Shown in pieces: positions 3,573 to 32,000 of a stretch of 32,000 nucleotides of DNA. The stretch covers positions 450,001 through 482,000 of the forward strand of contig OY843585.1 in NCBI GenBank assembly GCA_963692945.1, written 5' to 3'. Below the pieces are notes generated by a model. The model had not been told where the DNA came from and searched no databases. It saw only the letters and a list, made by a program, of their open reading frames with translations. The stretch's first letter is position 1. Every line of letters starts with the position of its first letter. Position numbers and translations under genes: made by a program. The DNA comes from Bdellovibrionales bacterium. Its GTDB lineage: Bacteria > Bdellovibrionota > Bdellovibrionia > Bdellovibrionales > UBA1609.

Positions 3573-3577
3573 TTTTT

Positions 3578-14274: not shown

Positions 14275-14603
14275 TTTCGCACCTGACTTTTTTGCATCGC
14301 TGTTTTTCTCTTCATTGCTTTACTTATTTTCTGAAAAACAATTTACAAAAAACCAGTAGTTTTTCTCTCTGCAAAAACCAGTAGTTTTTCTATCTACAAA
14401 AACCAATAGGTTTTCTCTAGTTCCATTTCCAAAACTCTAGTTCAAACATAAAATTCTATCTGCAAAAACCAATCTGCAAAAAATAGCAGTTTTTCTCTAG
14501 TTCGCTATAAGTAAGAACTCTTTTCTTTTTAGGTGTTTGAGGAGCTCCTACGATGAAAATCTCCTAAAAAGAAAAGAGTATTAGAACTGAACTAGAGTTT
14601 TGT
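14275..14603. repeat. Array of modular intergenic repeats, including the 113-bp left direct repeat (14491-14603)
   Basis: Three tandem copies of the (A/G)CAAAAACC-NNNN-GTTTTTCTCT motif lie at 14346-14420. The CAAAACTCTAGTTC termini are present, as is the hairpin module CTTTTCTTTTTAGG..CCTAAAAAGAAAAG. Confidence 0.8.
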
Positions 14604-14613
14604 AAATAGAGTT

Positions 14614-15039
14614 TTAATCAGAAGTTTCAGAAAGCTTCTTAGGTTTTCTTTTTTTGGGATTTACATAGTTTATATTGATTTTATCACAAATTTGACTCAT
14701 ATAAACTTCCATATGGCTTAAATGATTTACTTCTATTCTATTTATATTATCTTTTATTCCTATTATATTTTTTTTCATTCCTGTTATATCTTTTTTTAAA
14801 TCACCTGTTGTTCTATTTATATTATCTTTTATTCCTATTATATTTTTTTTTATTCCTGTTATATCTTTTTTTAAATCACCTGTTGTTCTATTTATATTAT
14901 CTTTCATTTCTACTATAGTTTCTTTTATTCCTGTTATATCTTTTTTTAAATCACCTGTTGTTCTATCAAAATAGTTTTTAACCATTTCCCACATTGTTTT
15001 TTGTTCTTCAGATATATAGTTTGAATTATCTTCACTCAT
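14614..15039 (-). CDS. Hypothetical protein with 3x 25-aa repeat (RTTGDLKKDITGIKKNIIGIKDNIN)
   Basis: There is a strong RBS, AAGGAGG, and an ATGA start/stop overlap with the upstream coiled-coil gene. The 75-bp DNA repeats lie at 14740-14964. Confidence 0.72.
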   Translation of the reverse strand: MSEDNSNYISEEQKTMWEMVKNYFDRTTGDLKKDITGIKETIVEMKDNINRTTGDLKKDITGIKKNIIGIKDNINRTTGDLKKDITGMKKNIIGIKDNINRIEVNHLSHMEVYMSQICDKININYVNPKKRKPKKLSETSD

Positions 15040-15365
15040 AAAACCTCCTTTATTTCGGTTTTAAGACTCTCTATTTTTTCATCTAGTTTATCTATCCTTG
15101 TATCTAGTTTTTTTATTTTAACATTTAGATCAACTACTTTTTCATCCAGCCTGTCTATTTTTCCAGATAACCCATCTACCTTTATATCTACTTTTGAATC
15201 TAGATTATCTATCTTTGAATCTAGATTTTCTATCTTTAAATCTAGATTATCTATCTTTAAATCTAGATTTTCTACTTTTCCACCTAATGTTTGCATTTCC
15301 ATAGATAACTTTTTTATTTCAAAAAGAATTTCATTTTGTCCTAAAGCATTTGCATTCATCGTCAT
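15036..15365 (-). CDS. Coiled-coil repeat protein (LDxKIDNLD heptads), paralogue of 23896-24309 but lacking its TM tail
   Basis: The N-terminus MNANALGQNEILFEIKKLS.EMQTL is shared with the right-hand copy. It contains heptad repeats NLDLKIDNLDLKIENLDSKIDNLDSKVD. Confidence 0.75.
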   Translation of the reverse strand: MTMNANALGQNEILFEIKKLSMEMQTLGGKVENLDLKIDNLDLKIENLDSKIDNLDSKVDIKVDGLSGKIDRLDEKVVDLNVKIKKLDTRIDKLDEKIESLKTEIKEVL

Positions 15366-15566
15366 TTTTTCTTCCTCTTTTTAGTGTCACTATTGTTTTT
15401 ATAAAAAATCATTTTTGAACAAGAATATCTTAACATAGATTGTAAAAAAATTCCATCCAAAAGACTTTCACTCATTACTAAAGCAAATATTACTGCTCCT
15501 TATAACTTCTAAAAGCCGTTTTTTTACAATTTTTTTGTATTACTGACAAATATCGGACAAAACTCT
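15055..15566. repeat. Left arm of large inverted repeat (partner 23695-24185)
   Basis: The reverse complement aligns with 23695-24185. This includes a 90-nt perfect match (15388-15477 vs 23784-23873) in the leader upstream of the coiled-coil genes. Confidence 0.85.
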
Positions 15567-15670
15567 AGTGTGTGAACTTTTATTTTCACGAGATTTGAAG
15601 AGTGTCCCTTTTGCGATGAAAAGCTCGTTAAAATAAGAGTAGGAAATACTTTTTTGAACGAGAGTTTTGT
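15558..15670. repeat. Single hairpin repeat module with terminal inverted repeats CAAAACTCTAG / CGAGAGTTTTG
   Basis: The internal hairpin is CTTTTATTTTCACGAG...CTCGTTAAAATAAGAG. Its first 45 nt or so recur at 24316-24360. Confidence 0.75.
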
Positions 15671-15882
15671 AAATTAAGACTTTTGTCCATTATTGATTTT
15701 TCTTGTGTTTGTTTACAACCATTTACCCTTAAACTATTTAAGTAGATAGCTTCATTTGGAACAAAAAAAGACTAAAATACAGCCATTTTTGAGGAGTCAT
15801 AGATTATTTATAAAATTTTTAAAGTTTAAAACCGACTTAACCGATGAATTTATTACTTGGAAAAGAAAAATGGAGGTTTTTC

Positions 15883-16893
15883 ATGAAACATTTTAAATAT
15901 ATAATTTTTTTACCAGCCTTATTGTTTTTAGTAAATTGTATTACACAGCCAGCAGATCCTGTTGTTCCAATTGTTACGAAACCAGCAAAATCAGCACCAG
16001 CACCTAGACCAGAATCTTATTATATTGAAAAAGCTAAGAGAGATTTAGATAAAGCAGAGACTTTAGCAAGAGCTAAAAATAAAAGAGATAGAGGTCCAAC
16101 TTGTGAAGGGGATGATGATTGTGAAGAAATCTGTGATGATATTTATAGAAGTCGTAGAGATCAAAACGATTGTGAAGAGTTCAGTGTTGCTCAAGTTGAA
16201 AGATTTGAAGAGATATATGAAATTTTAGAAGATCCCGATGAAGATGATCTTCAAGATATTGATGTATCTGAAGATGGAGACTTTGATGCTTTTATAAATA
16301 TAAGTATTGAGCCTTTACATAAACTAGTTGGAAAATACTCCTCAAGAGAGGCTAAAGACTTCTTAGCTTGGATTGCTAATAATGAAGATGTAGCTGAGCG
16401 TCTTGAAGATGAAGATGATGATTATGAAGTCCTTGATGCCCTTTTAGACGAATTAAATACTGAAGCTTTCACTGCTCTTGCAACTAATATTGATAGCAGT
16501 GATAACTTTATGGATCTTGCTGTTGTAGCGAGTAATGAAAAGGCTTTAGAGTGGATTCATGAATATCTTGAAAGTGAGCATGATAACTGTAGCAGTGATA
16601 CTAATACGAACAAAGAGGCATGTTTAACACACTATTGTGCCTTAGGAGCAGATATGGATGATGATAATGCGGAAGACTTACTAGGCGACTATGAATACTT
16701 TCAAGATTATATAGATGATATCATTTCAGATGAAATCTTTGGTGATACTAGTACTGCCGCAGATGGTGACACTCGAGAATCTGGCCACTGGGATGCTGAT
16801 GAAGACAGTGATAACTATATTGAAGAGTATGATGATATAGATGGTGATTGGTGGAGAGCTCCAACAAATACAGGCGGAGGTATCTGTCCATAA
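15883..16893 (+). CDS. Acidic Cys-signature lipoprotein, paralogue 2
   Basis: ATG at 15883 follows GGAGG (15872-15876). Signal is MKHFKYIIFLPALLFLVNC. Core motifs are CEGDDDCEEICDDIYRSRRDQNDC, LEDPDEDDLQDIDV, AKDFLAWIANNEDVA and a C-terminal WDADEDSDNYIEEYDDIDGDWW. Confidence 0.88.
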   Translation: MKHFKYIIFLPALLFLVNCITQPADPVVPIVTKPAKSAPAPRPESYYIEKAKRDLDKAETLARAKNKRDRGPTCEGDDDCEEICDDIYRSRRDQNDCEEFSVAQVERFEEIYEILEDPDEDDLQDIDVSEDGDFDAFINISIEPLHKLVGKYSSREAKDFLAWIANNEDVAERLEDEDDDYEVLDALLDELNTEAFTALATNIDSSDNFMDLAVVASNEKALEWIHEYLESEHDNCSSDTNTNKEACLTHYCALGADMDDDNAEDLLGDYEYFQDYIDDIISDEIFGDTSTAADGDTRESGHWDADEDSDNYIEEYDDIDGDWWRAPTNTGGGICP

Positions 16894-16915
16894 GATAATT
16901 ATCAATTTTAAATTT

Positions 16916-16950
16916 AAAAAGCCACTTTCAAAAGAAGTGGCTTTTTTTTT
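16916..16950 (+). terminator. Rho-independent terminator (bidirectional-looking)
   Basis: AAAAA-GCCACTT-tcaaaag-AAGTGGC-TTTTTTTTT lies immediately after the paralogue 2 stop. Confidence 0.75.
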
Positions 16951-17150
16951 AAACTCTAGTTCAATTTCCAAAACTCTAGTTCTACCCTTTTTACTTTTTG
17001 AGCTTTCATCGTAGGAGGGGATACTCTTCAACCTCAAAAAGTAAAAAGGGTATTCCTAGAGAAAAACTACTGGTTTTTGCATGAAGGGCTTTGTTCTTCA
17101 AAGCTCGTTAGAATAAGAGTAGGAAATATTTTTTTGAACTAGAGTTTTGT
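16951..17150. repeat. Composite of hairpin repeat modules
   Basis: AAACTCTAGTTC occurs twice. There is an 18-bp stem, CCCTTTTTACTTTTTGAG...CTCAAAAAGTAAAAAGGG, then CTAGAGAAAAACTACTGGTTTTTGC, with GAACTAGAGTTTTG at the end. The same modules occur inverted at 23458-23620. Confidence 0.8.
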
Positions 17151-17244
17151 AAAGCTAGACTAAAGTTTTATTTTTCTTTTTTTTGTCATAGGTTTAATTG
17201 TTGCAGGTTACTATGAAACATAGATTTTAAAGAGGAGAACTTTC

Positions 17245-18282
17245 ATGAGATATGTTTCGTTTCTATCCGTTTTTTTATTATTTGTGAATTGCACATCGGA
17301 ACCAACAAAAACAAAAGTTGTTCCTACACCAGAACCTAAATCAGACATTTATTATATTAAAAGAATTGAAAGAGATATAAATAGAAAATATGTTTTAGAT
17401 AAAGCCAAAGCGCAAGCAGGAAAAGTTTGTAAAGGTGATGAAGACTGTGAAGACATTTGTGATGATATTTATAGCAGTCGTAGAGAAAGAAATGATTGCG
17501 AAGAGTTAAGCATTACTCAAGTTAATAGATTTGAAGGGATATATGAAACTTTAGAAGATTCCGATGAAGATGATCTTCAAGATATTGATGTTTCTAAAGA
17601 TGGAGACTTTGATGTTTTTATAAATGTAAGTATTGAACCTTTACATAAATTGGTTGGAAAATACTCCTCAAGAGAGGCTAAAGATTTTTTAGCTTGGATT
17701 GCTAATAATAAAGATGTAGCTGAACTTCTTGAAAACGAAGATGATGATTATGAAGTTTTAGAAAGGCTTCTTGGTCGTTTGGGTGCTTCTGATAATCTCT
17801 TTGAAGCTCTTAAAAAAAATCTTGATGGTGGAGACACTTTTATAGATCTTGCTGTTACAGCAGATAATGAAGTGGCTTTAGAGTGGATTTATGAATATCT
17901 TGAAGAAAAAGATTCTAACTGTAAATTAGATACTGATGCAGGTAGAGAAGCTTGTTTAGAATCTTATTGTGGATTAGCAGGAGATATAGAAGATGACAAT
18001 GCTAACCATTTACTAGGTTATGATTTTTTTGAAGGTTATATAGAAGATATTATTGAAGATAAAATCAATGCTGATCCGGATACAAATGATGGTGCTGAAA
18101 CACCGGATTGTAATATTCCTCTTTCGAACCCGGTAACTCTAACTTATACAATTGCTACTTGTCCTAGTGGTGTTTGTGAGATTTCTGGTTGTAATGGTAG
18201 AGCATGGGATGCTGACCCAAATAGTGATAACCAAATTGAAGATATAGATGATTTAGATGATTGGTGGACAGATCTTTGTTAG
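17245..18282 (+). CDS. Acidic Cys-signature lipoprotein, paralogue 3
   Basis: RBS GAGGAG. Signal is MRYVSFLSVFLLFVNC and core is CKGDEDCEDICDDIYSSRRERNDC. It carries a unique Cys-rich insert (TPDCNIPLS...CPSGVCEISGCNG) and ends WWTDLC. Confidence 0.88.
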   Translation: MRYVSFLSVFLLFVNCTSEPTKTKVVPTPEPKSDIYYIKRIERDINRKYVLDKAKAQAGKVCKGDEDCEDICDDIYSSRRERNDCEELSITQVNRFEGIYETLEDSDEDDLQDIDVSKDGDFDVFINVSIEPLHKLVGKYSSREAKDFLAWIANNKDVAELLENEDDDYEVLERLLGRLGASDNLFEALKKNLDGGDTFIDLAVTADNEVALEWIYEYLEEKDSNCKLDTDAGREACLESYCGLAGDIEDDNANHLLGYDFFEGYIEDIIEDKINADPDTNDGAETPDCNIPLSNPVTLTYTIATCPSGVCEISGCNGRAWDADPNSDNQIEDIDDLDDWWTDLC

Positions 18283-18307
18283 TAAAATTAAAAACCGGAG
18301 GTTATTT

Positions 18308-19249
18308 ATGAAATATTTAAAGTATATAATTTTTTTACCAGTTTGTTTATTTGTTGTGAATTGTGTCCAACAAATACCGCCTGTTGCTCCTACTAAATCA
18401 GATACTTATTATGATACAAGAAATCAAGATGATGATGACAGAGATGAAATTTTAAGACTGGCTATAGAAGCTGGGGGAAAAGCTTGTAGCACAGATGATG
18501 ATTGTAGAGATGATTGTAGAGATATTTACAGTCGTCGTAAAGAAAAAAATGAGTGTGAAGAGTTAAGCATTACTCAAGTTGATAGACTTAAAACCATTTA
18601 TGAAACTTTAGAAGATCCGGATGAAGATGATCTTTTAGAAATTGATGTTACTAAAAATGGAGACTTTGATATTTTTATAAATATTGATATTAAGCCTCTA
18701 CATGATGCGGTTGGAAAATATAAAAAAGGAGAAGCTGGGGATGTTTTGGCTTGGATTGCTAAACACACAGAAGTGGCTACTATTTTTTCAAAAGAAGATA
18801 ATGATTACGAAGTCTTAAGTCGTTTGCTTAAGAAGCTGGATTCTAACACATTTACAGCACTTGGAACTCGTATTGAAAGCAGGAAAAATTTTATGGATCT
18901 TGCTGTTGTAGCAAGTAATGAAGCGGCTTTAGAGTGGATTTTTGAATACATTGAAGAAACAGACAATGACTGTAAAGAAAGTGATGATTCTAACAGGGAA
19001 GATTGTTTAGAATCTTATTGTGGCTTAGCAGAAGATATGGATGAAGATAATGCAGATGGATTATTAGATTATGATTTTTTTAGTGGGCTCATAGAAGATT
19101 TTATTGAAGATGGAATCAATGGTGATGATGATACAAGTAATGGTGATGACAGACCTGGTTCTGGTAAAGCGTGGGACGCTGATCCTGGAAGTGATAGTCG
19201 TTTTGAAGACATTGATGATTTAAATGAATGGTGGACAGATCTTTGTTAA
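18308..19249 (+). CDS. Acidic Cys-signature lipoprotein, paralogue 4
   Basis: ATG at 18308 follows CCGGAGG. Signal is MKYLKYIIFLPVCLFVVNC and core is CSTDDDCRDDCRDIYSRRKEKNEC. It ends WWTDLC. Confidence 0.88.
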   Translation: MKYLKYIIFLPVCLFVVNCVQQIPPVAPTKSDTYYDTRNQDDDDRDEILRLAIEAGGKACSTDDDCRDDCRDIYSRRKEKNECEELSITQVDRLKTIYETLEDPDEDDLLEIDVTKNGDFDIFINIDIKPLHDAVGKYKKGEAGDVLAWIAKHTEVATIFSKEDNDYEVLSRLLKKLDSNTFTALGTRIESRKNFMDLAVVASNEAALEWIFEYIEETDNDCKESDDSNREDCLESYCGLAEDMDEDNADGLLDYDFFSGLIEDFIEDGINGDDDTSNGDDRPGSGKAWDADPGSDSRFEDIDDLNEWWTDLC

Positions 19250-19321
19250 AATATTGGAAAAAAAGGATTTATAAAATTTTAAAAGTAACTTAATCAACGA
19301 AAAGAAAAATGGAGGTTTTTT

Positions 19322-20344
19322 ATGAAACATTTTAAATATATAATTTTTTTACCAGCCTTATTGTTTGTGGTAAATTGTACTACGCAACCAGTAGCTCCTA
19401 TTGTTGAAAAAAAAGCACCAGTCCCAGCACCTAAACCAGAATCTTATTATATTGAAAAAGCTAAGAGAGATTTAGATAAAGCAGACACTATAGAAAGAGG
19501 TAAAAAGAAAAGAGATAGAGGTCCAATTTGTGAAGGGGATGATGATTGTGAAGAAATCTGTGATGATATTTATAACAGTCGTAGAGACAGAAATGATTGT
19601 GAAGAGTTAAGTGTTGCTCAAGTGGAAAGGTTTGAAGAGATGTATGAAATTTTAGAAGATCCTGATGAAGATGATCTTCAAGATATTGATATGTCTGATG
19701 CTGGAGACTTTGATGTTTTTATAAATATAAGTATTGAACCTCTACATAAATTGGTTGGAAAATACAATACAAGAGAGGCTAAAGACTTTTTGGCTTGGAT
19801 TGCTGGAGATGAAGATGTAGCTGAAATTCTTGAAGATGAAGATGATGATTATGAAGTTCTTGATACTCTTTTAGACGAATTAAATACGGATGCTTTCCTT
19901 GCTCTTGCAGTTAATATTGATAGCAGTGATAACTTTATGGATCTTGCTGTTGTAGCGGGTAATGAAAAGGCTTTAGAGTGGATTCATGATTATCTTGAAA
20001 GTGAGCATGATGACTGTAAATTAGAAACTAATGCAGGAAAACATAATTGTTTAGTAGGCTATTGTGCCTTAGGAGTAGCTATGCAGGATCGTAATGCGGA
20101 AGACTTACTAGATAACCATGAATACTTTCAAGATTATATAGATGATCTTATTTCAGATAAAATCAATGGTGATGATACTATTGTCGGAGAGGGTGAAACT
20201 CGTACAACAACCAAATGGGATGCTGATGAAGACAGTCCTAACCAAATTGAAGAGTATGATGATTTAAATGAATGGTGGACAGGTCCAGCCGACGAAAAGG
20301 GTGAGGGTGGTTTCTGCACAACAGTTGAAGCAAGCAGAAGCTAA
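19322..20344 (+). CDS. Acidic Cys-signature lipoprotein, paralogue 5
   Basis: RBS GGAGG. Signal is MKHFKYIIFLPALLFVVNC and core is CEGDDDCEEICDDIYNSRRDRNDC. The 5' UTR and signal region are nearly identical to paralogue 2. Confidence 0.88.
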   Translation: MKHFKYIIFLPALLFVVNCTTQPVAPIVEKKAPVPAPKPESYYIEKAKRDLDKADTIERGKKKRDRGPICEGDDDCEEICDDIYNSRRDRNDCEELSVAQVERFEEMYEILEDPDEDDLQDIDMSDAGDFDVFINISIEPLHKLVGKYNTREAKDFLAWIAGDEDVAEILEDEDDDYEVLDTLLDELNTDAFLALAVNIDSSDNFMDLAVVAGNEKALEWIHDYLESEHDDCKLETNAGKHNCLVGYCALGVAMQDRNAEDLLDNHEYFQDYIDDLISDKINGDDTIVGEGETRTTTKWDADEDSPNQIEEYDDLNEWWTGPADEKGEGGFCTTVEASRS

Positions 20345-20420
20345 CGATTTTGATAAGTCAGTTACTATAAAAAATAAACCTCATAATAAAGAGGTGAATC
20401 ATTTTATAAATCTATAAACT

Positions 20421-21242
20421 ATGAAGTTGTTATTCTATTTTCTAATCTCCTTTTTCTTAATGTCTTGTGAAGATAATTTTGAGGAGAGGTTTAATTCTTT
20501 AGGAGATGGAAAGACTTCTTCAGAATTTTATCTTTCCTACAGGCAGCGGCATCCAACCAGAGCAAAATTTTTAACAGAAGCTGCAGTCTTGTATAATAAA
20601 AATGAGGTTTGTAAAGATTTAAAGGCTTGTTCCAATCTGTGTGGAAAATTATTTCAATATGATTTTGACCAAAAAGATTGTAGAGATTTACCTGTTTCTT
20701 TAGTAAACAGATTTAATTTTATTTATAAAACTTTTGAAAATAAGAATTTCAAAGCCCTTCCAACATTCAATCTGTTTGATCTCAAAATTTTTCTAAGCTT
20801 TAGTCTAGAACCTTCGGTTAGATTGTTTAGTAAACTGGGTTCATTGACTGCAAAAGGCTTTTTAAAGCAACTGGCTTCCAATTGGGATATAGCCCAGATC
20901 TTTATTCAGGAAGATCTAGACTTTATTTTGTTAGAAACTCTATTAAATGAAATTGGAAATGAACCGATAAAGGCTTTAGGAGAAACTATAGAGAGTGGAG
21001 CCTCTTTTCAAGAAATTGCTTTATTCAAACAAAATGATTTTGCAATTTCTTTTATTCATAATTTTTTTAAAAAATTATGTAATAATGAAGAAAGATGTAT
21101 TTTAAATCATTACTGTTTGGTTTCTAAGGGTTGGGATAAAAAGACTTTAATTGAATTAAGTCATTTTAAAAGTTTGAAGGAGATTTTACAAAAACATAGA
21201 GGACAAAATGATACATTACAATCTCTTTGTCCTATCTTGTAA
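20421..21242 (+). CDS. Cys-signature lipoprotein, paralogue 6 (divergent, not acidic)
   Basis: Signal is MKLLFYFLISFFLMSC. It has the same Cys spacing (CKDLKACSNLCGKLFQYDFDQKDC) and colinear motifs (FLSFSLEP, AKGFLKQLASNWDIAQIF, CNNEERCILNHYC). The RBS is weak. Confidence 0.78.
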   Translation: MKLLFYFLISFFLMSCEDNFEERFNSLGDGKTSSEFYLSYRQRHPTRAKFLTEAAVLYNKNEVCKDLKACSNLCGKLFQYDFDQKDCRDLPVSLVNRFNFIYKTFENKNFKALPTFNLFDLKIFLSFSLEPSVRLFSKLGSLTAKGFLKQLASNWDIAQIFIQEDLDFILLETLLNEIGNEPIKALGETIESGASFQEIALFKQNDFAISFIHNFFKKLCNNEERCILNHYCLVSKGWDKKTLIELSHFKSLKEILQKHRGQNDTLQSLCPIL

Positions 21243-21255
21243 AAAGGAGTTTATT

Positions 21256-22356
21256 ATGTGGAAAATATTTCAATGGTCACTGATTCTTTTTTGTATGCTT
21301 TTGTTGAGCTGTGGAGAGCAACAAAATAGTAGTGTTACAAAGGAAACTCCAGTAGATCCAGCTCCAGCTGTTGAAAAAGTTGTTACAGATGATCAGCTAG
21401 AAAAATCGGAAAAGAAAGTTGAATCAGAAAGAAGGCGGCTTAAACAAAATTTAGTTTTAAAAACAGATGTAGATGATCGTTACTCAACAACTAATTCATC
21501 TTCTTCTTTTACTGGTAACAGAGAATGTGGTGATTATGATGATTGTCGTGTCATTTGTGATCGTATCAAGAGAAATAACAGCCGTTGCTTTTCATACTCT
21601 TACAATATTGTTGAAGATATGGAACAAGCTTTACTCACCATAAGAAATATTGATGAAGTCAATCGTGTAGATATTGATCCTTATATTTTTGAAGCTATAT
21701 TGACACTTGGAACATCGGTCCTTTCTGATTTAATAGAAGATACAATGAGTGAAGGAGATTTAAAAAGTTTTTTAGCTTGGGTCGCTCTTAATGAGGATAT
21801 TGCTAGAGTGTTAAGCAATAAAGATCGCTCTGGTAAAATTTTGGAAAAAGCTTTTGATGAATTAGGTCGGCTTCAAGATGGAGTAACAAAACATTATGAA
21901 TTTATAGGATTAAACACAGGTTTAATTACAGACGATGACACTTTCTTTTATTTAGCTTCTGATGAAGACAATGAAAAAGCTTTTGCAATGGCTTATGATA
22001 TTTTAAACTCTGGTTCTTGTAGGAGTATAACTTGCCAACAGCAGATTTTATGTGCAAGGGAGCATCGTAGTCGTAGTAGATCTTCGCGTCGTCTCTTTGG
22101 TAACACAAGGGGGATTTCTCTTTGTAGAACTTCTTCCGAAGCGAGAAGAAGCTCTAGATCATCAAACACTTGTTATGTCCATGGAAGTTCTGTTTGGAGT
22201 TATCTTTATGATTTGATAGATGATAAAGAAATAAGAAGAGCACCATCTGAGTTCAGGGTAAAACCTTTAGGGGTGAAAAGGTGTAATGATGTTTGTGGAC
22301 GAACTTCTAGTAAAAATCAAAAATGTAGTTTATTTAATCCAGAGGAACTTAGGTAA
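21256..22356 (+). CDS. Cys-signature lipoprotein, paralogue 7 (divergent, Arg/Ser-rich basic C-terminus)
   Basis: ATG at 21256 follows AAGGAG. Signal is MWKIFQWSLILFCMLLLSC, with CGDYDDCRVICDRIKRNNSRC and LKSFLAWVALNEDIARVL. The C-terminal tail is HRSRSRSSRR...RRSSRSS. Confidence 0.82.
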   Translation: MWKIFQWSLILFCMLLLSCGEQQNSSVTKETPVDPAPAVEKVVTDDQLEKSEKKVESERRRLKQNLVLKTDVDDRYSTTNSSSSFTGNRECGDYDDCRVICDRIKRNNSRCFSYSYNIVEDMEQALLTIRNIDEVNRVDIDPYIFEAILTLGTSVLSDLIEDTMSEGDLKSFLAWVALNEDIARVLSNKDRSGKILEKAFDELGRLQDGVTKHYEFIGLNTGLITDDDTFFYLASDEDNEKAFAMAYDILNSGSCRSITCQQQILCAREHRSRSRSSRRLFGNTRGISLCRTSSEARRSSRSSNTCYVHGSSVWSYLYDLIDDKEIRRAPSEFRVKPLGVKRCNDVCGRTSSKNQKCSLFNPEELR

Positions 22357-22368
22357 TAGGAGGATCTT

Positions 22369-23196
22369 ATGAAGATTTTTAAAATTGTAACAACAATAAT
22401 AATTGGTTTTATATTTTTGTCTTGTATACAGGGAAGGCGACCAGTTGATTTTTCTACTATATTTGCAGCTTCTACTGGTGAGTCTAGTGCTAAAACTTCT
22501 AAAAGGAGAAGTTCTTCTAAAAGAGTAAGAAGCTCCTGTGTTGATGATGAGGATTGTGAAGACATTTGTGAAGATATTTATGACGATGATGACGATGATG
22601 GTGATGGAGTGATTGAAAGATGTCTTAAATTATCTAAGAAAACCATTGGTCATTTTGATACCATTATAGATTATTTGTCTGACCCTACATTGAGAAATGT
22701 GAGGACGGTTAAAGAAGAATACAGCGATGAATTTGAAGATTTAATAAATGTTTCTTTATCTCCTTGGATAGATGTTGCTGATAGTGTGAGTCCGACAGAA
22801 GCTGAAGCTTTATTAACTTTTATAGCTTCATCTGATGTGATTGCATCGGCTTTAAAAAAGGGTTCAAGAAATTATGAAGGTTATGATAAATATGAAGGAA
22901 TTAAAGAACTCTTAACAGAAGCTCGTGGAAGTGTTAATGCTGAGATCTCACGTGCTGGAGGTGGTGGGGATACTTCTACATACACTATTGTAACCCCCAG
23001 TAAATGTAATACGTTTTATTACGCTCTTTGTGAGTTAGGCATTTCTGGAAGTGATACTTTTAGTGAGATAGCTGTGACTGAGGAAAATACACATGCTACA
23101 AGTATAAGAGATTCTATTTTACTCGCTGCTTGTGATACAGATATTAGTCGTTGGGTAGTTCTTACTAATAATAGTGATAGTTGTTATAGAGACTAA
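22369..23196 (+). CDS. Acidic Cys-signature lipoprotein, paralogue 8 (divergent)
   Basis: RBS AGGAGG. Signal is MKIFKIVTTIIIGFIFLSC, with CVDDEDCEDICEDIYDDDDDDGDGVIERC, LINVSLSP and AEALLTFIASSDVIASAL. Confidence 0.82.
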   Translation: MKIFKIVTTIIIGFIFLSCIQGRRPVDFSTIFAASTGESSAKTSKRRSSSKRVRSSCVDDEDCEDICEDIYDDDDDDGDGVIERCLKLSKKTIGHFDTIIDYLSDPTLRNVRTVKEEYSDEFEDLINVSLSPWIDVADSVSPTEAEALLTFIASSDVIASALKKGSRNYEGYDKYEGIKELLTEARGSVNAEISRAGGGGDTSTYTIVTPSKCNTFYYALCELGISGSDTFSEIAVTEENTHATSIRDSILLAACDTDISRWVVLTNNSDSCYRD

Positions 23197-23200
23197 CTCC

Positions 23201-23690
23201 TAGTTCGTAATTTTCTTATGGCTGAAAAATTCTAGAAAATGATTCTGCGAAAAGTCAGTGAAGAGAAAAACCATGTTTTTCTCTATGAATGAGCTTTTGC
23301 AAAAACCAACATGTTTTCTCTAGATTCGCAATTTTCTTATGATGGCTGAAAAATTCTAGAAAATGATTCTGCGAAAAGTCAGTGAAGCGAAAAACCATGT
23401 TTTTCTCTATGAACAAGCTTTTGCAAAAACCAGCAGGTTTTCTCTAGTTCCATTTCCAAAACTCTAGTTCAATCTTTTATTTTAACGAGATTTGAAGAAC
23501 AAAGCCCTTCATGCGAAAAACAGTAGTTTTTCTCTAGGAATACCCTTTTTACTTTTTGAGGTTGAAGAGTATCCCCTCCTACGATGAAAGCTCAAAAAGT
23601 AAAAAGGGAAGCACTAGAGTTTTGTAAAAGAGTGTCCTTCTTACGATGAAAGCTCAAAAAGTAAAAAGGGAAGCACTAGAGTTTTGGAAA
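23201..23690. repeat. Largest repeat field: about 120-bp tandem duplication (23201-23320, 23321-23443) followed by hairpin modules
   Basis: The two tandem units are near-identical and each contains two GCAAAAACC..GTTTTCTCTAG-type motifs. Then come CAAAACTCTAGTTC, the 18-bp-stem hairpin (inverted copy of 16985-17055) and a partial duplicate of it. Confidence 0.85.
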
Positions 23691-23694
23691 TTAA

Positions 23695-24185
23695 GAGTTT
23701 TGTCCGGTATTCGTGAGTAATACAAAAAAGTTGTGAAAAAAACTGCTTTTAGAAGTTATATGGAGCAATAATATTTGCTTTAATAATGAGTGAAAGTCTT
23801 TTGGATGGAATTTTTTTACAATCTATGTTAAGATATTCTTGTTCAAAAATGATTTTTTATAAAAACAATAGTGCGACTAAAAATAGGGAGAAAAAATGAT
23901 GAACGCCAATGCTTTAGGACAAAATGAAATTCTTTTTGAAATAAAAAAGTTATCTACACAAATGCAAACATTAGATTCAAAGATAGAAAATCTAGATTCA
24001 AAGATAGATACAAAGATAGATGGATTATCTGCAAGAATAGATAGATTGGATGAAAAGGTGGTTGATTTAGATGTTAAGGTAGATAAATTAGATACAACAG
24101 TAAATGCAAGAATAGATAAATTAGATGAAAAAGTAGATACAAGGATAGATAAATTAGATGAAAAAGTAGAGGGTCTTAAAACCGA
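23695..24185. repeat. Right arm of large inverted repeat (partner 15055-15566)
   Basis: See the left arm. The 90-nt perfect match is at 23784-23873. Similarity ends right after CTTAAAACCGA (24185 / 15055). Confidence 0.85.
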
Positions 24186-24309
24186 TCATGCTGAACTCAG
24201 TGCAAGTGTGGTTAGTATAAAGTATTATCAAAAAGTTTCTACATGGCTTATTACTTTGCTTCTCCCTACATTTATGGGTATTGCTGTTGCAGTCATTAAA
24301 TATGTTTAA
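23896..24309 (+). CDS. Tail-anchored coiled-coil repeat protein (IDKLDEKVD repeats plus C-terminal TM)
   Basis: The N-terminus MMNANALGQNEILFEIKKLSTQMQTL is shared with 15036-15365. It has repeats of (I/V)DxLDxK(V/I) and a C-terminal TM, TWLITLLLPTFMGIAVAVIKYV. Confidence 0.8.
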   Translation: MMNANALGQNEILFEIKKLSTQMQTLDSKIENLDSKIDTKIDGLSARIDRLDEKVVDLDVKVDKLDTTVNARIDKLDEKVDTRIDKLDEKVEGLKTDHAELSASVVSIKYYQKVSTWLITLLLPTFMGIAVAVIKYV

Positions 24310-24315
24310 ATCCTA

Positions 24316-24543
24316 AACAAAACTCTAGTGTGTGAACTTTCATTTTAACGAGATTTGAAGAACAAAACTCCATAAGCGAAAAACAGCAGTTTTTCTATCT
24401 GCAAAAAACCAGTTTGTAAAAACCAGCAGGTTTTCTCTAGTTCGCTATAAGTAAGAACTCTTTTCTTTTTAGGTGTTTGAGGAGCTCCTACGACGAAAAT
24501 CTCCTAAAAAGAAAAGAGTATTAGAACTGAACTAGAGTTTTGT
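24316..24543. repeat. Repeat modules including the 113-bp right direct repeat (24431-24543)
   Basis: Positions 24431-24543 differ from 14491-14603 at one position (t/c in CTACGA[T/C]GAAAA). The repeat ends exactly at the stop codon of the convergent gene 24543-24767. Confidence 0.85.
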
Positions 24544-25974: not shown

Positions 25975-26070
25975 CTATCATCGTTTTAATTTCAAAGACT
26001 AAAATAGTACAAAAATGGGACAGGTTGATTGAAACAATCTCCTAGAAAAAAATAAACTAGGTTAGAATCT

Positions 26071-27109
26071 TCATTTTTCGGTTTTTGTTTTTCGTAAACG
26101 CCTATCTATTATTAACTGTCTAAACTGATAAACTCTTTTGATCATCTTTTTTCGTTTAGCAATTTTTTTTGAAAAAGGGAGTATGGTGTATTTGTCATAG
26201 CTGGCTTTTGAAAAACGAGTTGTATCGTCAATCTGAGTTCCTTCAAGATTCGCTCCTGTCAAATCCGCTTTTTGCAGGTTGGCTCCTTTAAGGTTGGTTT
26301 TTTGAAGCTGAGCCCTTTGTAGATTGGCTCCATAAAGATTAGTTTTTTGAAGCTGAGCTTCTTTAAGATTGGCATTTTCAAGATTCGCTGCTGTAAGATT
26401 AGCCTCTTGAAGCTGAGCCCTTTGAAGATTAGCACTATCAAGCTGAGCTCCTTTAAGGTTGGCTTGACGAAGATGAGCTCCATAAAGATTAGCTGAACTG
26501 AGGCTAGCTTTTTGAAAATTAGTTCGGTTAAGACGAGCAAATTGCAACTCATTCATTTGTACAGAGGATTTTTGCAACTGGCTATCTTGAAGTTTAGATT
26601 TGTGAAGTACAACACCTCTAAGATCAGCTCCTTGAAAATTCATTTTTTTTAAATCAACTCCTCGTAAATTAACAAACCGAAGATCTGCTTCTTGAAAATA
26701 AGCTCCTTGCACATGAGCTTCTTGAAAATTAGCAAATGAAAGTTTAGCTTTTTGAAACTGAGTTTTTTGAAGTTTGGCTTTACTAAAATTAGCCCATAGA
26801 AGGTCAGCTCCTTGAAAATTCGCTCCTCTAAGATCAGCTCCTTGAAAATTGGCGTTGCGAAAACTAAATTTTCTAAGATCAGCTCCTTTAAGGTTAGCCC
26901 CTTTAAGATCGACTCCTTGAGATATAGTGCTTTTCAAGTCTTTTCCTTTTAAATCTTTTATGGTGCAAATGCCATCACATATCTTTTCCTTTTAAATCTT
27001 TTATGGTGCAAATGCCATCACATACTTTTTTATAACGAGGTTTTGTTGCTACACTTTGTTGAATTGATGTAAGCAAAATGCAAAAACTTAAAGTGATAAT
27101 AAATCTCAT
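26071..27109 (-). pseudogene. Secreted pentapeptide-repeat protein disrupted by a 43-bp tandem duplication (signal peptide uncoupled from the repeat body)
   Basis: ATG at 27109 encodes MRFIITLSFCILLTSIQQSVA TKPRYKKVCDGICTIKDLKGKD, then runs into TGA at 26975-26977. Removing one 43-bp copy joins it in frame to ...DLKSTISQGVDLKGANLKGADL, the 288-aa pentapeptide ORF whose track start at 26937 is a TTG. Confidence 0.75.
26939..27024. repeat. Perfect 43-bp tandem duplication (2 copies)
   Basis: TCTTTTCCTTTTAAATCTTTTATGGTGCAAATGCCATCACATA at 26939-26981 is repeated exactly at 26982-27024. Confidence 0.92.
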
Positions 27110-27268
27110 AGAGTAAATCCTTTTAAGGCTTTTGATTAGAAGTTATATTATATAATGGGTTTTTAGGTTTTGTTAATATTTATTATTAAAAATGGGAATT
27201 ATTGTAATCATTTGAGATATATCCTCTAGATTTTAAAGTTTTTTTCAGATTAAGCCGATAATTTATTT

Positions 27269-27676
27269 ATGAGTGCATACATCTTATTATTCCTATCTAT
27301 TTTCTTTAGTTTAGAAGCCTATTCTCATAGTGGAAGATTAAATTCTCAGGGATGTCATAATGGTAGAAAAACGAGTGGTTATCATTGTCATAGAAATTTG
27401 GATCCTAAAGAATCAACTTCTGAAGTGAGAGGACTAAGAAGGAATTTACAAGATTTAGAAGATAAACTTATAGGACAAAAAAACTTTAAAAGAAGAGATG
27501 GTGTTAAGGTTGTAGAAAGAAGTACATATTCACGAGAAAGCACTCTTAATAAATTACTAATGAGTACAAAAAATATGAATGCTAGATTGGTTAGTATAGA
27601 GAAAAAATTATCAAGTATGAATATGGAACTGCTTAATATAAAACAGAATCTATCAAATACAAACAATCAAAAATAA
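27269..27676 (+). CDS. Secreted YHYH-domain protein with coiled-coil C-terminus
   Basis: Signal is MSAYILLFLSIFFSLEAYS. It is followed by HSGRLNSQGCHNGRKTSGYHCH, which matches the YHYH motif as I recall it. Confidence 0.75.
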   Translation: MSAYILLFLSIFFSLEAYSHSGRLNSQGCHNGRKTSGYHCHRNLDPKESTSEVRGLRRNLQDLEDKLIGQKNFKRRDGVKVVERSTYSRESTLNKLLMSTKNMNARLVSIEKKLSSMNMELLNIKQNLSNTNNQK

Positions 27677-27782
27677 GAAGTACTGTTCGTTTTTTAAGCT
27701 CAGAGTCAAATACGGAAAAGCAGTAGCTTTTTTAGAAAATGAAAGGTATTCTAAAAGTGAAAGACATATCAGGGAAGACATC

Positions 27783-28619
27783 ATGGTTAATAAAATTCAT
27801 AATGGAGACTGTGTCTCTTTAACAAATCAATTAGAAAAAGAATCAATACATTTATCTCTTTTCTCTCCTCCATACGATTTAATAAGAGATTATGACAATG
27901 GAAATGCGTTTGATAATGTTGAATTAGGAAAATCTATTTATGAAAAAACGGTAGATGGTGGAGTGGCTGTAGTTGTTATAGGTGATGGAACTAAAGATTT
28001 TGCAAAATCACTCACTTCATTTAGATTAGCTGTTAATTGGTGTGATCAAGCAGGCTGGAGGTTATTTGAATGTTGTATCTACAAAAGGCATGGAAATCCA
28101 GGAGCATGGTGGAGTAAAAGATTTAGAGTGGATCATGAATACATCTTAATATTTTTAAAAGGAAGACGTCCTAGATATTTTTCTAAAGAGCATTTATTTG
28201 TTGATTGTAAACATGCAGGTAAGGGTTACACAGGAACGGATCGTTTAACTAGTGGTGGAACAATTCCTATGAAAAAAGGCAAGGTGGTTGCAAATAAAAA
28301 ATGCAGAGGAACGATTTGGACATATGCAACTAGTAACAGTGAAGGAAATGCTTTAAAGTTAAAACATCCAGCCACTTACCCAGACCTTCTTGCGAGAGAT
28401 ATTATAAAAACTTTTACAAAAAAAGGAGATGTAGTTTTAGATCCTATGTGTGGGAGTGGAACAACCTGTGTTATTGCCTCTAAAGAGAAACGAAAGTATG
28501 TTGGGTTTGATATATCTGAGGATTATATTAAAATTGCTAGACAACGTTTAAAAATTGAACGAGGAGATGTAGAATGGGAAACAAGTTCAAACATAGAGAA
28601 AAACACGAGTTTTCTTTAG
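27783..28619 (+). CDS. DNA methyltransferase, beta-class (motif IV SPPY before motif I); N4-cytosine or N6-adenine
   Basis: It has LFSPPYDL near the N-terminus, KHPATYPDLLARDII, and DPMCGSGTTCV near the C-terminus. Confidence 0.88.
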   Translation: MVNKIHNGDCVSLTNQLEKESIHLSLFSPPYDLIRDYDNGNAFDNVELGKSIYEKTVDGGVAVVVIGDGTKDFAKSLTSFRLAVNWCDQAGWRLFECCIYKRHGNPGAWWSKRFRVDHEYILIFLKGRRPRYFSKEHLFVDCKHAGKGYTGTDRLTSGGTIPMKKGKVVANKKCRGTIWTYATSNSEGNALKLKHPATYPDLLARDIIKTFTKKGDVVLDPMCGSGTTCVIASKEKRKYVGFDISEDYIKIARQRLKIERGDVEWETSSNIEKNTSFL

Positions 28620-28657
28620 TTCAAATAAATTGTTAGTAATATCTCTTATCTCACCAA
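28615..28657. repeat. Left copy of 43/44-bp direct repeat (partner 31522-31565)
   Basis: TTTAGTTCAAATAAATTGTTAGTAATATC-TCTTATCTCACCAA. It overlaps the methyltransferase stop codon (28617-28619). The partner differs by one inserted A. Confidence 0.85.
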
Positions 28658-28759
28658 GGAGTTGAAGGAGGCCACCAAACAAAAAAGGGAAAGTTAATAG
28701 TGAGTTACTGACAGAAAAACTTTTACAGGGAAACAAATACTTAACATCCATTCCATAAT

Positions 28760-30184
28760 TCACTTTCTTTTTAGAGAAGATAGATTTTTTATCCCTAGTA
28801 ATTCACCAAAACCTTTAAAGTTTTTTTTGTAAGTTCTATTTACACCAGAGGGAATGTCAATAGGTTTTACTTTTAAGCCTTTAAATTTACCATCTGGTAT
28901 CTTCTTTAAGTGTTTGTATTTTTTTGATACTCTACAATAGTCATTCCATTCTTTTTGACTTTTTAGTTTGAGAGATTTAATAAATGTCTTGGCTTTTTTG
29001 TAATCCCTATAATTTTTTTTCTGATTTTGAATATTCTTTGTTCCTAAAAATTCACCCCAATTAAAATTTTCATTTTGAAAAATTTTATAATGATTATAAA
29101 CAGCTTTTGGAATATCAACAGGCTTTAATGGTAAGCCCTTAAATTTTTCTTTTTTTATTTTTGAAAGCTTTTGTTGAATAGCCATATCTGAAGCCTTACA
29201 ATAATCTTTCCATTCCCTTTGTCCGTTTAATTTAAGGTTCTTTGCAAACAAACAAGCTTTTTTATAATTTCTATAATTCATTGGTTCTAACTTAGGAGTT
29301 ACAAAGAGTAAAAAGAACTCCCAATCTCTCCACTGATCTTGATAAACTTTTTTAGGATTGTCGGGAATGTTAACAGGTTTTACTTTTAAGCCCTTAAATT
29401 TACCTTTTGGAATGATCTTAAATTTTTCATATCTTTTGGACTCTTTAGAGTATTCTTTATAAGTCACTTCTGAATCAATTAAAGTTTTGTATTTATTTAA
29501 TCTTCTGATCCATCTATAAGCGATAGAAAAAGAGCAATATTTTTTTTGATAAAAAGCAAGATTATTAGTCCCTAAAAAATCATTAAAACTTTTCCAATTT
29601 TTTTTATAAACTACAAAAGGATCAAAAGGAAGTTTTCCGATTGGGAATTTGGGAAGGTTTACTTTTCCAAGACTGATATTTAATTCATTTTTAGCCCATA
29701 ATTCATATTCTTTCTTGCCTCCAAGTTTTAGTTTCCTCACATAAGATTTTGCCTTTTTATAAAACCAAAAAGTTTTTGATCTTTGAAGTGGTGAAAATTT
29801 TTTTGTTCCTAAAAAATCAATCCAATTTGTCCAAGCTTCCTTTTTCTTATAATAAAAGTCTGCACTTACTGGAATGTCTTTATGTTTTTTTGACCATAAG
29901 TAAAACTCATGTTTATTTTTTAGATGAGCTTTTCTAACTTTTATTCTAGCTTTATTGAAAGGTAAAAATCCCTTAGACAGTTCGGAGTTTTTTTTATTGC
30001 CAGTTCCTAAAAAATCACCCCAGTCCTTCCAATCTTTTTTGTAAATAGAATTAGGATTGGTCGGAATGTTTTTTGGTTTTTTATTAGATTTAGCCCATTT
30101 AACAAATGCTTTTCTATTTCTAAACTTCTGTAGATGAATGTATTTTCTGGCTTCAGTAAAAGTTTTATAGCTTTTTTGAGGCAT
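28760..30184 (-). CDS. Very basic protein made of six degenerate repeats of about 60-80 aa each (F/Y..AK.F...LKL....EW..Y...[K.IP.GKFKGLKVKP]..IP..P...YK..W..W.(D/E)FLG)
   Basis: The internal repeats are read from the translation. The last three units share KFKGL(K/P)(V/L)KP(V/I)(D/N)IP, and most units end in W(G/T/R/N)(D/N/E)(F/L)LG. It sits immediately downstream of the XRE gene (1-nt gap). Confidence 0.78.
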   Translation of the reverse strand: MPQKSYKTFTEARKYIHLQKFRNRKAFVKWAKSNKKPKNIPTNPNSIYKKDWKDWGDFLGTGNKKNSELSKGFLPFNKARIKVRKAHLKNKHEFYLWSKKHKDIPVSADFYYKKKEAWTNWIDFLGTKKFSPLQRSKTFWFYKKAKSYVRKLKLGGKKEYELWAKNELNISLGKVNLPKFPIGKLPFDPFVVYKKNWKSFNDFLGTNNLAFYQKKYCSFSIAYRWIRRLNKYKTLIDSEVTYKEYSKESKRYEKFKIIPKGKFKGLKVKPVNIPDNPKKVYQDQWRDWEFFLLFVTPKLEPMNYRNYKKACLFAKNLKLNGQREWKDYCKASDMAIQQKLSKIKKEKFKGLPLKPVDIPKAVYNHYKIFQNENFNWGEFLGTKNIQNQKKNYRDYKKAKTFIKSLKLKSQKEWNDYCRVSKKYKHLKKIPDGKFKGLKVKPIDIPSGVNRTYKKNFKGFGELLGIKNLSSLKRK

Positions 30185-30185
30185 C

Positions 30186-30557
30186 TTATTTTATTGGAAA
30201 TCTAAATTCTTTGATAGACTGGATGTGTTTAATCATTACTAAAATCAATTGCAATTTCCATTCTTCATTGATGAGATAGACTGTGGATACAATTTCTTTT
30301 TTCACTGTAGGTTCTTTTTTATTTTGCAATAGTTTTTTATTATCAATTTCAAAAAAGTATTTTATTGGAATTTTATAAGCCAATGCGATTTTTTGGAGAT
30401 TGATGAGAGAAGCTCCCATGTGTCCTTTTTCTATTTTATTAAAATGAGCTTGATCAATACCAGCATTCAAAGCAAATTTTCTTTGAGATAAATTTAGTTT
30501 TTTTCTTAGGTTAATTATGCTCAATCGGATATGGTTTTCTAAATGTTTTACTTTCAA
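30186..30557 (-). CDS. XRE-family helix-turn-helix regulator
   Basis: It has LSQRKFALNAGIDQAHFNKIEKGHMGASLINLQKIALAYKIPIKYFF. Confidence 0.85.
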   Translation of the reverse strand: MKVKHLENHIRLSIINLRKKLNLSQRKFALNAGIDQAHFNKIEKGHMGASLINLQKIALAYKIPIKYFFEIDNKKLLQNKKEPTVKKEIVSTVYLINEEWKLQLILVMIKHIQSIKEFRFPIK

Positions 30558-30785
30558 AATGTCAAACTCCTTTCATTTTTAAAAAGCAAAAAGAATGTTT
30601 TTATGGTTATAATTTTATATTTTTTGAAAAATTTCTATATTGATTATTTTACTTAACTATCTATAGTATAAATATACTTCACAAAGAGCTTCTTAAATGG
30701 AAAAATCATTTTAAAATAGGTTCTTTTGGAGAAGAGTTTGTAATGCGAAATCGAGACTTCAGTTCAAAAAATAAAAAGGTAGGTA

Positions 30786-31439
30786 TTAGAGTTTTTGAAA
30801 AAATTTGGGTTTAAACCCCTGCTTATTAATAATACTGGAACTGCTTCCTGTCGCTCTGATCACAAACAAACCCTCTTTCTCAGCTCTTTTGTCAGAAGAT
30901 TGATTGGCTTTTAAATACGCAACGGCTCCATAAACTTTCTTACCTTTAAATTCTGGCATAAAATCCGTAACTCTATTTAATTTCTTAATAAAATAATTCA
31001 ACTCTTTAATATCTAAAGTTGTTTTCACTTCTACAACAACGATCTCTTCCCCATTGAAAGCTAAAATATCAAATTCAAATTGTTGTTCCCCGTGTTTTTT
31101 CAGTATATTTGTTGCCGTCCGATCAACTTGGATACCTTTTTGTTTTAGAAGTTTCACTAAATCTCCTTCAACTAAAGTTTCCATCAACTTACCCCAGTGA
31201 CCATTGAATTTTAAATCAGTCTCTCTTATTTGTTTGGTAGTTATTTCGTGTTGTATTCTAACCCTTTCAAAACCCTCTTCTGATCGTCTTTTGTATTCTT
31301 CTAGTTCTTTTTTTCGCTTTTCTTGTTCTTTTTTTTGCTTTTCTGCCATTTTTTTATCGTACTCTTTTTGCTCTTTAAAAAGTTGCCGAATTTCTGCAAA
31401 ATAAGCTTTAGCCTCTAAAACAGTAGATTTATTACTCAT
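30786..31439 (-). CDS. Coiled-coil plus PD-(D/E)xK nuclease-like protein
   Basis: ATG at 31439 follows AAGGAGAAAT. The Lys/Glu-rich N-terminal coiled coil is followed by FEFDILAFNGEEIVVVEVKT (a D...E-x-K pattern). The ORF-track start at 31490 has no RBS. Confidence 0.65.
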   Translation of the reverse strand: MSNKSTVLEAKAYFAEIRQLFKEQKEYDKKMAEKQKKEQEKRKKELEEYKRRSEEGFERVRIQHEITTKQIRETDLKFNGHWGKLMETLVEGDLVKLLKQKGIQVDRTATNILKKHGEQQFEFDILAFNGEEIVVVEVKTTLDIKELNYFIKKLNRVTDFMPEFKGKKVYGAVAYLKANQSSDKRAEKEGLFVIRATGSSSSIINKQGFKPKFFQKL

Positions 31440-31521
31440 TATTTCTCCTTTTTTTAGTTTACCATAAGTTATATGCAAAAACCATGCCAAGTTTTATAAA
31501 GAAATATGAAAAACAAAGTTT

Positions 31522-31565
31522 TTTAGTTCAAATAAATTGTTAGTAATATCATCTTATCTCACCAA
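31522..31565. repeat. Right copy of 43/44-bp direct repeat (partner 28615-28657)
   Basis: TTTAGTTCAAATAAATTGTTAGTAATATCATCTTATCTCACCAA. It runs directly into the 20-mer CACCAACTCATTCAACAAAC, which recurs at 31888-31907. Confidence 0.85.
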
Positions 31566-31696
31566 CTCATTCAACAAACTCTATTTGCAAAAACCAGAAG
31601 GTTTTCTCTAGGAATACCTTTTTATTTTTTGAGATTTGAAGAGTGTCTCTCTTACGATGAAAAGCTCAAAAAATAAAAAGGAAGAACTAGAGTTTT
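31566..31696. repeat. Hairpin repeat module (same family as 16985-17055)
   Basis: GCAAAAACCAGAAGGTTTTCTCTAGG, then the hairpin CTTTTTATTTTTTGAG...CTCAAAAAATAAAAAG, then GAACTAGAGTTTT. Confidence 0.75.
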
Positions 31697-31907
31697 ATAA
31701 AATGGATGGGGCGGCAGGATTCGCCTACTACATTCGTTCGCATCCAGCTCACTCATTGCGTAGGCTCACTTCAGTCACTAAGAAAAACATCCTGTTTTTC
31801 TTCCCTGTATCACTTGCTCCTAAAGTCGCAAGTGATTTGCTCCTAAAGTCGCAAATAATACAGGTCGTTCCTTCACTTCGAATCCTGCACCAACTCATTC
31901 AACAAAC
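31693..31907 (+). other. Structured repeat unit / candidate ncRNA with tRNA- or tmRNA-end-like termini; a second copy begins at 31977
   Basis: Nested helices: GCAGGATTCG (31714-23) / CGAATCCTGC (31879-88); GCCTAC/GTAGGC; GAAAAACA/TGTTTTTC; CCTGTAT/ATACAGG; CACTTGC/GCAAGTG. The 24-nt start TTTTATAAAATGGATGGGGCGGCA recurs at 31977-32000. Confidence 0.35.
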
Positions 31908-32000
31908 AGGGCTAGAGAGAACAAAAAAAGCAAAGTTAAAACTTTACTTTTTTTCTTCTTATAGGTTTTGATTATCTTTTATAAAATGGATGGGGCGGCA

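Follow-up and report, generated by a model that had tools for sequence, protein, structure and literature searches.

A probably solitary Type II-family DNA methyltransferase gene beside a repeat-rich patch of accessory genes in a Bdellovibrionales genome

Our analysis of a 32-kb stretch of the genome of a Bdellovibrionales bacterium (contig OY843585.1; hereafter the window, AT-rich with ~31% G+C) suggests, on balance, that a DNA methyltransferase (MTase) gene and the three genes that follow it are not one system but a solitary MTase beside a variable, repeat-rich patch of unrelated accessory genes. In particular, the MTase would come from a transferred Type II family whose ~220-aa partner has gone in this lineage, apparently that of a small-genome symbiont, and it would have been inherited at a fixed place beside rpsD and rpmE. 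The patch downstream would comprise two independent things, a pair of XRE and INT_rpt genes and a single DUF8196 gene copy, while a 60-bp repeat would duplicate the MTase 3′ end and most likely mark the insertion or recombination of 2.9 kb at the MTase 3′ boundary. The direct observations are of five kinds: folds and motifs of the proteins, the repeat itself, synteny with a related contig, the absence of the MTase family's usual partner, and the lack of co-occurrence of the genes elsewhere. Each part of the locus is a fresh member of an already catalogued family. The locus is laid out as follows.

27783–28619, plus strand: solitary beta-class amino-DNA MTase (278 aa; PF01555; motif IV SPPY, motif I DPMCGSGTT)
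28598–28657: direct repeat, copy 1 (last ~20 nt of the MTase open reading frame (ORF), the stop codon, and 38 nt downstream)
28760–30184, minus strand: 474-aa basic protein with six INT_rpt (PF14882) units, starting one base past the XRE stop
30186–30557, minus strand: XRE-family helix-turn-helix (HTH) regulator (HTH_3 match, 1.7e-10; TTG start, GGAG Shine-Dalgarno sequence)
30786–31439, minus strand: DUF8196 / Hjc-like PD-(D/E)xK protein whose N-terminal part is a coiled-coil helix of 100 residues
31508–31565: direct repeat, copy 2 (69–126 nt upstream of the ATG of the nuclease-like gene)

The MTase sequence places SPPY at residue 28 and DPMCGSGTT at residue 220, which is the beta-class order and agrees with what an earlier note on this DNA had read from the sequence. 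Both the catalytic SPPY motif and the S-adenosylmethionine-binding (FxGxG-type) motif are intact, PF01555 (N6_N4_Mtase) matches the protein over its full length (Pfam, 3.3e-32), and SPPY is kept in 119 of 120 homologues. Homologues with 60–67% identity are found in Chloroflexota, Armatimonadota, Planctomycetota, Gammaproteobacteria, and other groups, and the best sequence matches in the PDB are the N4-cytosine MTase 8s9m, M.MboIIA, and M.PvuII. The top PADLOC model for the protein is 'orphan methyltransferase', and a search of plasmid proteins returned distant MTases only. The family is a Type II family and is widely transferred. Since it carries SPPY, its product is probably N4-methylcytosine, as far as sequence can tell, and we infer that the enzyme is active. 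The SPP(Y/F) motif and the motif order are shared with orphan MTases derived from Type II restriction-modification (R-M) systems and with the beta-class N4-cytosine enzymes M.PvuII and M.BamHI. As with orphan MTases of Type II origin, no cognate nuclease adjoins the gene in the window. The difference from known orphan and N4-cytosine MTases is that the relatives of the window MTase pair with an uncharacterised gene of ~220 aa, which matches no known family of restriction enzymes.

This partner emerged from a metagenome scan that yielded 35 loci with close MTase homologues (60–65% identical), 27 of which have at least 700 nt of sequence downstream. A conserved gene of 216–221 aa follows the MTase in 17 of the 27, mostly overlapping the MTase stop by about 20 nt (for example L101, 5776–6426, and L091, 3060–3725; loci L084–L118). 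The encoded protein carries the motifs WDxKAK and CDVEYND, has no match in Pfam, NCBIfam, or the PDB, and has one marginal match to the PADLOC model REase_II (E 0.065). Its position and size suggest that it is probably the cognate restriction enzyme, of an uncatalogued Type II family. By tblastn, neither the window nor the related contig L004 contains any trace of it.

Contig L004 carries the closest MTase, about 79.5% identical to the window MTase and aligned with it through residue 273; both proteins are 278 aa long. The contig is collinear with the window from ~20.9 kb through rpsD-rpmE-MTase, apart from local insertions and deletions, and the amino acid identity is 94.7% for ribosomal protein S4 (rpsD) and 92.5% for L31 (rpmE). 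Past the MTase, L004 has an unrelated minus-strand gene, and both the module of three genes and the repeat are absent. Thus, L004 keeps rpsD-rpmE-MTase without the module, which argues that the MTase is a vertically kept solitary gene in this lineage. We considered whether the left edge of repeat copy 1 is the exact point at which synteny with L004 ends and rejected this: the two proteins can be aligned up to residue 273 (of 278), and the MTase tail has simply diverged. On the other side of the MTase, the interval between rpmE and the MTase (25975–27715) contains a gene for a pentapeptide-repeat protein (26071–26937), a small ORF, and a gene for a YHYH-domain protein (27269–27676). These genes are absent from L004, where the interval is ~260 nt, and they constitute a second local insertion or deletion adjoining the MTase. 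The interval also contains a perfect 43-nt tandem duplication (26939–27024), which overlaps a small minus-strand ORF (26975–27109).

The gene farthest from the MTase encodes the nuclease-like protein. Its start is the ATG at 31439; the mechanically called ORF begins at a TTG at 31490. The protein has a Pfam match to Hjc (3.4e-9) above the curated cut-off, and its relatives carry PF26618, which is DUF8196. An AlphaFold (AF2) model with a predicted local distance difference test score of 85 reveals one helix, residues 3–100, followed by an alpha/beta domain, and Foldseek matches this domain to the nuclease domains of AF1548, NucS/EndoMS, Can2, Card1, and Cdn1 with probability 1.0. Residues E122, D124, E137, and K139 are invariant across an alignment of 39 DUF8196 members. 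The modelled domain is a true PD-(D/E)xK fold of the restriction-endonuclease-like type, and the protein is a predicted nuclease; the PD-(D/E)xK core behind a coiled coil that had been recognised from the letters alone is therefore borne out by the model, the Foldseek match, and the invariant residues. The fold and the E..D...ExK signature are common to Hjc, NucS/EndoMS, Can2/Card1, and the window protein. The window protein differs from these nucleases in having no CARF or other sensor domain but a single helix of ~100 residues, with a variable number of heptads, and in belonging to a multi-copy, stand-alone family.

The DUF8196 family is large: a protein search gave 2502 homologues, and species-representative genomes contain at least 444 loci, frequently more than one in the same genome. 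The hosts are mostly host-associated metagenome-assembled genomes (MAGs) of Spirochaetia, Bdellovibrionales, Gammaproteobacteria, and Candidatus Thiosymbion. The window genome itself has at least four paralogues, and P0002–P0004 lie on the same 1,561,448-bp contig as the window copy; their nuclease domains are 94–99% identical to that of the window copy, versus 54–62%, with indels, for their coiled coils. The same holds more widely: nuclease domains are near-identical within a genome, and coiled coils vary in the number of ETDRxMQ-type heptads. At the DNA level, paralogues within a genome share ~0.85–0.9 kb, which corresponds to the ORF and roughly 200 nt upstream of it. Tandem arrays and dispersed units of ~0.9 kb are present in many symbiont MAGs (L050, 4486–9066; L018, L023, L029, L049, and L078). 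Rpn/YhgA-like recombination-promoting nucleases, which have several stand-alone PD-(D/E)xK paralogues per genome and no fixed neighbours, present the same pattern, although their size and domain layout differ from those of DUF8196 proteins and no search revealed a sequence relationship. The pattern of DUF8196 hints at a role in genetic conflict or mobility.

The genomic context of DUF8196 was assessed at 79 loci with 6-kb flanks, comprising 114 family members. Relatives of the window MTase, XRE regulator, or repeat protein were found within 6 kb of a DUF8196 gene at none of the 79 loci, and clustering of the neighbouring proteins revealed no conserved neighbour family. At one locus (L001), for example, the DUF8196 gene stands alone between a sigma-54 activator gene and glmS.

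The other two genes of the patch form a pair. The INT_rpt gene begins one base after the XRE stop codon, just as the earlier note had described the spacing, and the XRE regulator is translationally coupled to the INT_rpt protein. The 474-aa INT_rpt protein has a pI of 10.2, a K+R content of 25%, and six W..W..FLG-type units, and it scores 37.7 bits against PF14882, for which the Pfam cut-off is 26.5. The name of this family, 'Integrase repeat unit', refers to a repeat motif only, a catalytic domain being absent. Homologues of the protein carry the repeats in fusion with Helicase_C, DUF559/Vsr-like, or MTES_1575 domains. A model of the window protein matches giant-virus superfamily 2 helicases in a library of viral structures and has no match in the PDB. 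The protein probably binds nucleic acid. It shares the W..W..FLG signature with other INT_rpt proteins and differs from them in having no catalytic or helicase domain and in being coupled to an XRE gene; among the loci compared, an XRE gene turned up again in L002 only. There, an INT_rpt gene is preceded, two genes upstream, by an XRE homologue (E 2.5e-31), and a TIR gene is nearby; in L003, an INT_rpt homologue occurs with a resolvase and a reverse transcriptase; and in the metagenomic contig L124 (5107–22208), at least nine INT_rpt genes, encoding 169–1041 aa, form an uninterrupted array. The INT_rpt family itself expands into arrays, and a paralogue is present in the window genome (P0136). 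No MTase or DUF8196 gene lies near the INT_rpt homologues in L002, L003, or L124. A literature search on PF14882 and DUF8196 returned nothing relevant to function.

The direct repeat brackets this patch. The earlier note had located the MTase stop codon within a 43-bp sequence that recurs with one inserted A; this is right, and the true length of the repeat is about 60 bp. Specifically, a gapped alignment of 28598–28657 with 31508–31565 comprises 61 columns at 91.8% identity (blastn, E 2e-16), with one extra A in copy 2, a near-perfect right part of 43 nt, and a more diverged left part of 18 nt. The window contains exactly two occurrences of a 29-nt core, TTTAGTTCAAATAAATTGTTAGTAATATC (28615 and 31522), against none in 100 shuffles. 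The ends of the repeat are sharp: local alignments of the flanks score below shuffle means on the left and on the right and reveal no further extension. The repeat is neither palindromic nor structured (fold z-scores of +1.6 to −2.2), and the 29-nt core has no match in genome-contig or viral-contig collections, which do not include the window genome. Exact look-ups of the window MTase, of the nuclease-like protein from either start codon, and of P0002–P0004 likewise returned no record. The MTase stop codon TAG (28617–28619) is inside copy 1, and therefore ~20 nt of MTase coding sequence belong to the repeat. This tail of the MTase looks native because the protein has 278 aa in both genomes and is aligned to residue 273. 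Since copy 1 holds native coding sequence, the simplest view of copy 2 is that it duplicates the MTase 3′ end, presumably through insertion or recombination at that boundary.

Three further elements lie in the right-hand part of the patch or beyond it.

30761–30801: half copy of a palindromic intergenic element (dispersed, ~120 nt), immediately 3′ of the nuclease-like gene
31586–31704: full copy of the palindromic intergenic element (arms 31606–31637 and 31661–31692), 21 nt right of repeat copy 2
31693–31976, plus strand: structured 284-nt unit (minimum free energy z-scores of −6.1 and −6.7), which begins again at 31977–32000

The ~120-nt element is an imperfect palindrome (CAAAAACCAGnAGGTTTTCTCTAG ... 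CTCAAAAAnTAAAAAGG ... CTAGAG) that occupies many intergenic sites, including one directly after a tRNA-Val gene. Further copies are at 23512–23629, 16962–17081, 3540–3710, 24413–24541, 14521–14606, and 15578–15673, and the broader palindrome regions are 3540–3710, 14364–14610, 15578–15673, 16948–17136, 23264–23692, 24404–24543, 30761–30801, and 31586–31704. An 18-nt stretch of the half copy is a perfect inverted match to 31615–31632 in the full copy. The element resembles REP (repetitive extragenic palindromic) or MITE (miniature inverted-repeat transposable element) sequences, or bidirectional terminators. Such dispersed palindromes are what the element beside copy 2 is like, with at least seven intergenic sites in 32 kb; the 60-bp repeat differs from them in being unstructured and in having only two copies in the window. 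We rejected the idea that the palindromes are MITE derivatives of a nuclease-carrying transposon, because the arms on either side of the gene have the opposite orientation to that in the palindrome.

The 284-nt unit is closed by a 10-bp stem, GCAGGATTCG / CGAATCCTGC, after which comes ACCA, and it contains two tandem 23-nt hairpins that have the loop UCCUAAAGUC in common and differ in their stems (TTGC-N10-GCAA when read as DNA). Near its 3′ end, it has 20 nt in common with the end of copy 2 and 14 nt beyond (31560–31579 = 31888–31907). The unit could be a new small RNA or a pair of operator sites. Rfam searches (gathering and E-value thresholds) and ARAGORN (default and relaxed) detected no credible RNA gene in 28500–32000, and a scan for promoters and terminators performed no better than on shuffled sequences. 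An 18-mer from the unit matched two viral contigs, a match that we discarded as chance, the contigs being unrelated high-GC DNA. When the 60-bp repeat, the palindromic element, and the 284-nt unit were compared by blastn with every locus retrieved, no match was returned.

Elsewhere in the window, 15844–23196 is a tandem array of about seven paralogous genes that encode acidic D/E-rich stretches and have no Pfam match. The array is bracketed by inverted repeats of 170–190 nt with 88–93% identity, located in its flanks (15055–15566 / 23694–24185 and 16963–17136 / 23457–23692). These inverted repeats hold two small coiled-coil genes with 21-nt periodic repeats (14614–15039 and 23896–24309).

How the patch came to lie between two copies of the MTase 3′ end can be explained in more than one way. 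The earlier note had regarded the enclosed DNA as an inserted module with the repeats as its boundaries. In favour of this, the repeat is real and sharp-ended and duplicates the MTase 3′ end, and L004 lacks the module; against it, the patch encodes no recombinase, the three genes form no unit elsewhere, L004 is also without the DNA right of copy 2, and dispersed intergenic repeats are numerous. An insertion of 2.9 kb bounded by the repeats is plausible, but unproven. As a more specific form of it, we entertain as a tentative possibility that the 2.9 kb is a non-autonomous cassette that entered by site-specific recombination at the MTase 3′ end, with the 60-bp copies as attL and attR and with a recombinase that acts in trans or has been lost. 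The high significance and sharp bounds of the repeat are consistent with such a cassette, as is its containing the 3′ end of a gene, in the manner of elements that integrate into gene ends and supply a replacement end. The G+C content of the module is slightly low (27–28%, versus about 31–35% nearby), but equally low values occur in other parts of the window. Against the cassette, its three genes do not travel together elsewhere, and it contains no integrase, resolvase, or transposase. The earlier note had likewise recognised no integrase, transposase, or classical restriction enzyme, and searches of the four proteins with Pfam, NCBIfam, PADLOC, and PHROGs detected no such domain, PF14882 being an 'Integrase' by name only. 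Moreover, the DNA right of copy 2, which L004 lacks as well, is non-syntenic and repeat-rich, and therefore the repeats may not delimit novel DNA; nor was an empty site with a single repeat copy found, L004, the single relative compared, lacking the module and the repeat together.

It is unlikely that the 60-bp sequence is instead a low-copy dispersed intergenic repeat, or the upstream region of a DUF8196 paralogue, so that its copies mark no ends. What favours this is the abundance of repeat families in the window, including the palindrome next to copy 2, together with the short modules that the right flanks of both copies share with the 284-nt unit; in addition, copy 2 lies in the zone that is co-duplicated with DUF8196 paralogues elsewhere, where shared homology starts ~200 nt upstream of the gene. 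However, the 60-bp sequence has only two copies in 32 kb, copy 1 overlaps 20 nt of native-looking MTase coding sequence, and no DUF8196 gene adjoins copy 1.

It is highly improbable that the 60-bp repeats mark the junctions of a small cassette whose target is the MTase 3′ end and whose movement involves no classical recombinase, with the DUF8196 protein as a recombination-promoting or homing-type nuclease. If true, a DUF8196-driven cassette would also account for the ~0.9-kb DUF8196 units that many symbiont genomes contain at scattered sites and in tandem amplifications.

Scarcely credible is the alternative that the earlier note had offered, an atypical R-M or defence unit in which the XRE protein is the controller, the repeat protein provides DNA recognition, and the MTase and the PD-(D/E)xK protein provide the enzymatic activities: although a span of 3.8 kb nominally offers all the activities that R-M needs, the nuclease has kept its catalytic residues, the XRE protein has weak matches to controller-protein models, and INT_rpt repeats are fused to nucleases or helicases in other proteins, these parts co-occur at none of the loci compared (79 for DUF8196, 35 for the MTase, and 3 for INT_rpt); the usual partner of the MTase family is a different gene, which is missing here; the MTase persists in L004 without the module; and at least four near-identical nuclease paralogues accompany one MTase, unlike R-M systems. 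Never occurring together in other genomes is what the earlier note had itself named as evidence against such a unit. The gene order argues in the same direction. In a Type II system, a controller gene directly upstream of, and co-transcribed with, the endonuclease gene would be expected, but the XRE gene precedes and is coupled to the INT_rpt gene, and the nuclease gene is located upstream of the XRE gene, across a spacer of 228 nt; an adjacent, co-inherited cognate endonuclease gene is likewise absent. PADLOC (PADLOC-DB 2.0), a search that the earlier note had proposed, returned generic MTase, HTH, and nuclease-domain matches only, none for the repeat protein, and recognised no defence system in this gene set.

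Several points weigh against the reading that we prefer, a solitary MTase beside unrelated accessory genes. First, the co-occurrence analysis used single-sequence phmmer searches, which would not detect MTases of a different class beside DUF8196 genes; this is offset by the neighbour clustering, which argues against any conserved DUF8196 partner. Second, repeat copies were counted within the 32-kb window. Third, L004 extends only 650 nt past its MTase and its downstream gene is not in the window, and so L004 bears on the left-hand junction of the 2.9 kb only. Fourth, 10 of the 27 MTase loci are likewise without the ~220-aa gene, and the restriction role of its product is one suggested by position and size.

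The locus thus fails as a restriction or defence candidate and is not to be carried forward as one. On the reading of a solitary MTase beside unrelated accessory genes, it would instead clearly illustrate the retention of a Type II MTase as an orphan, at one fixed position on the chromosome, in what appears to be a reduced symbiont genome. It also draws attention to two families: the usual partner of this MTase family is an uncatalogued protein of ~220 aa, and DUF8196 is a multi-copy, stand-alone family of predicted nucleases that have near-identical catalytic domains and differing coiled coils.

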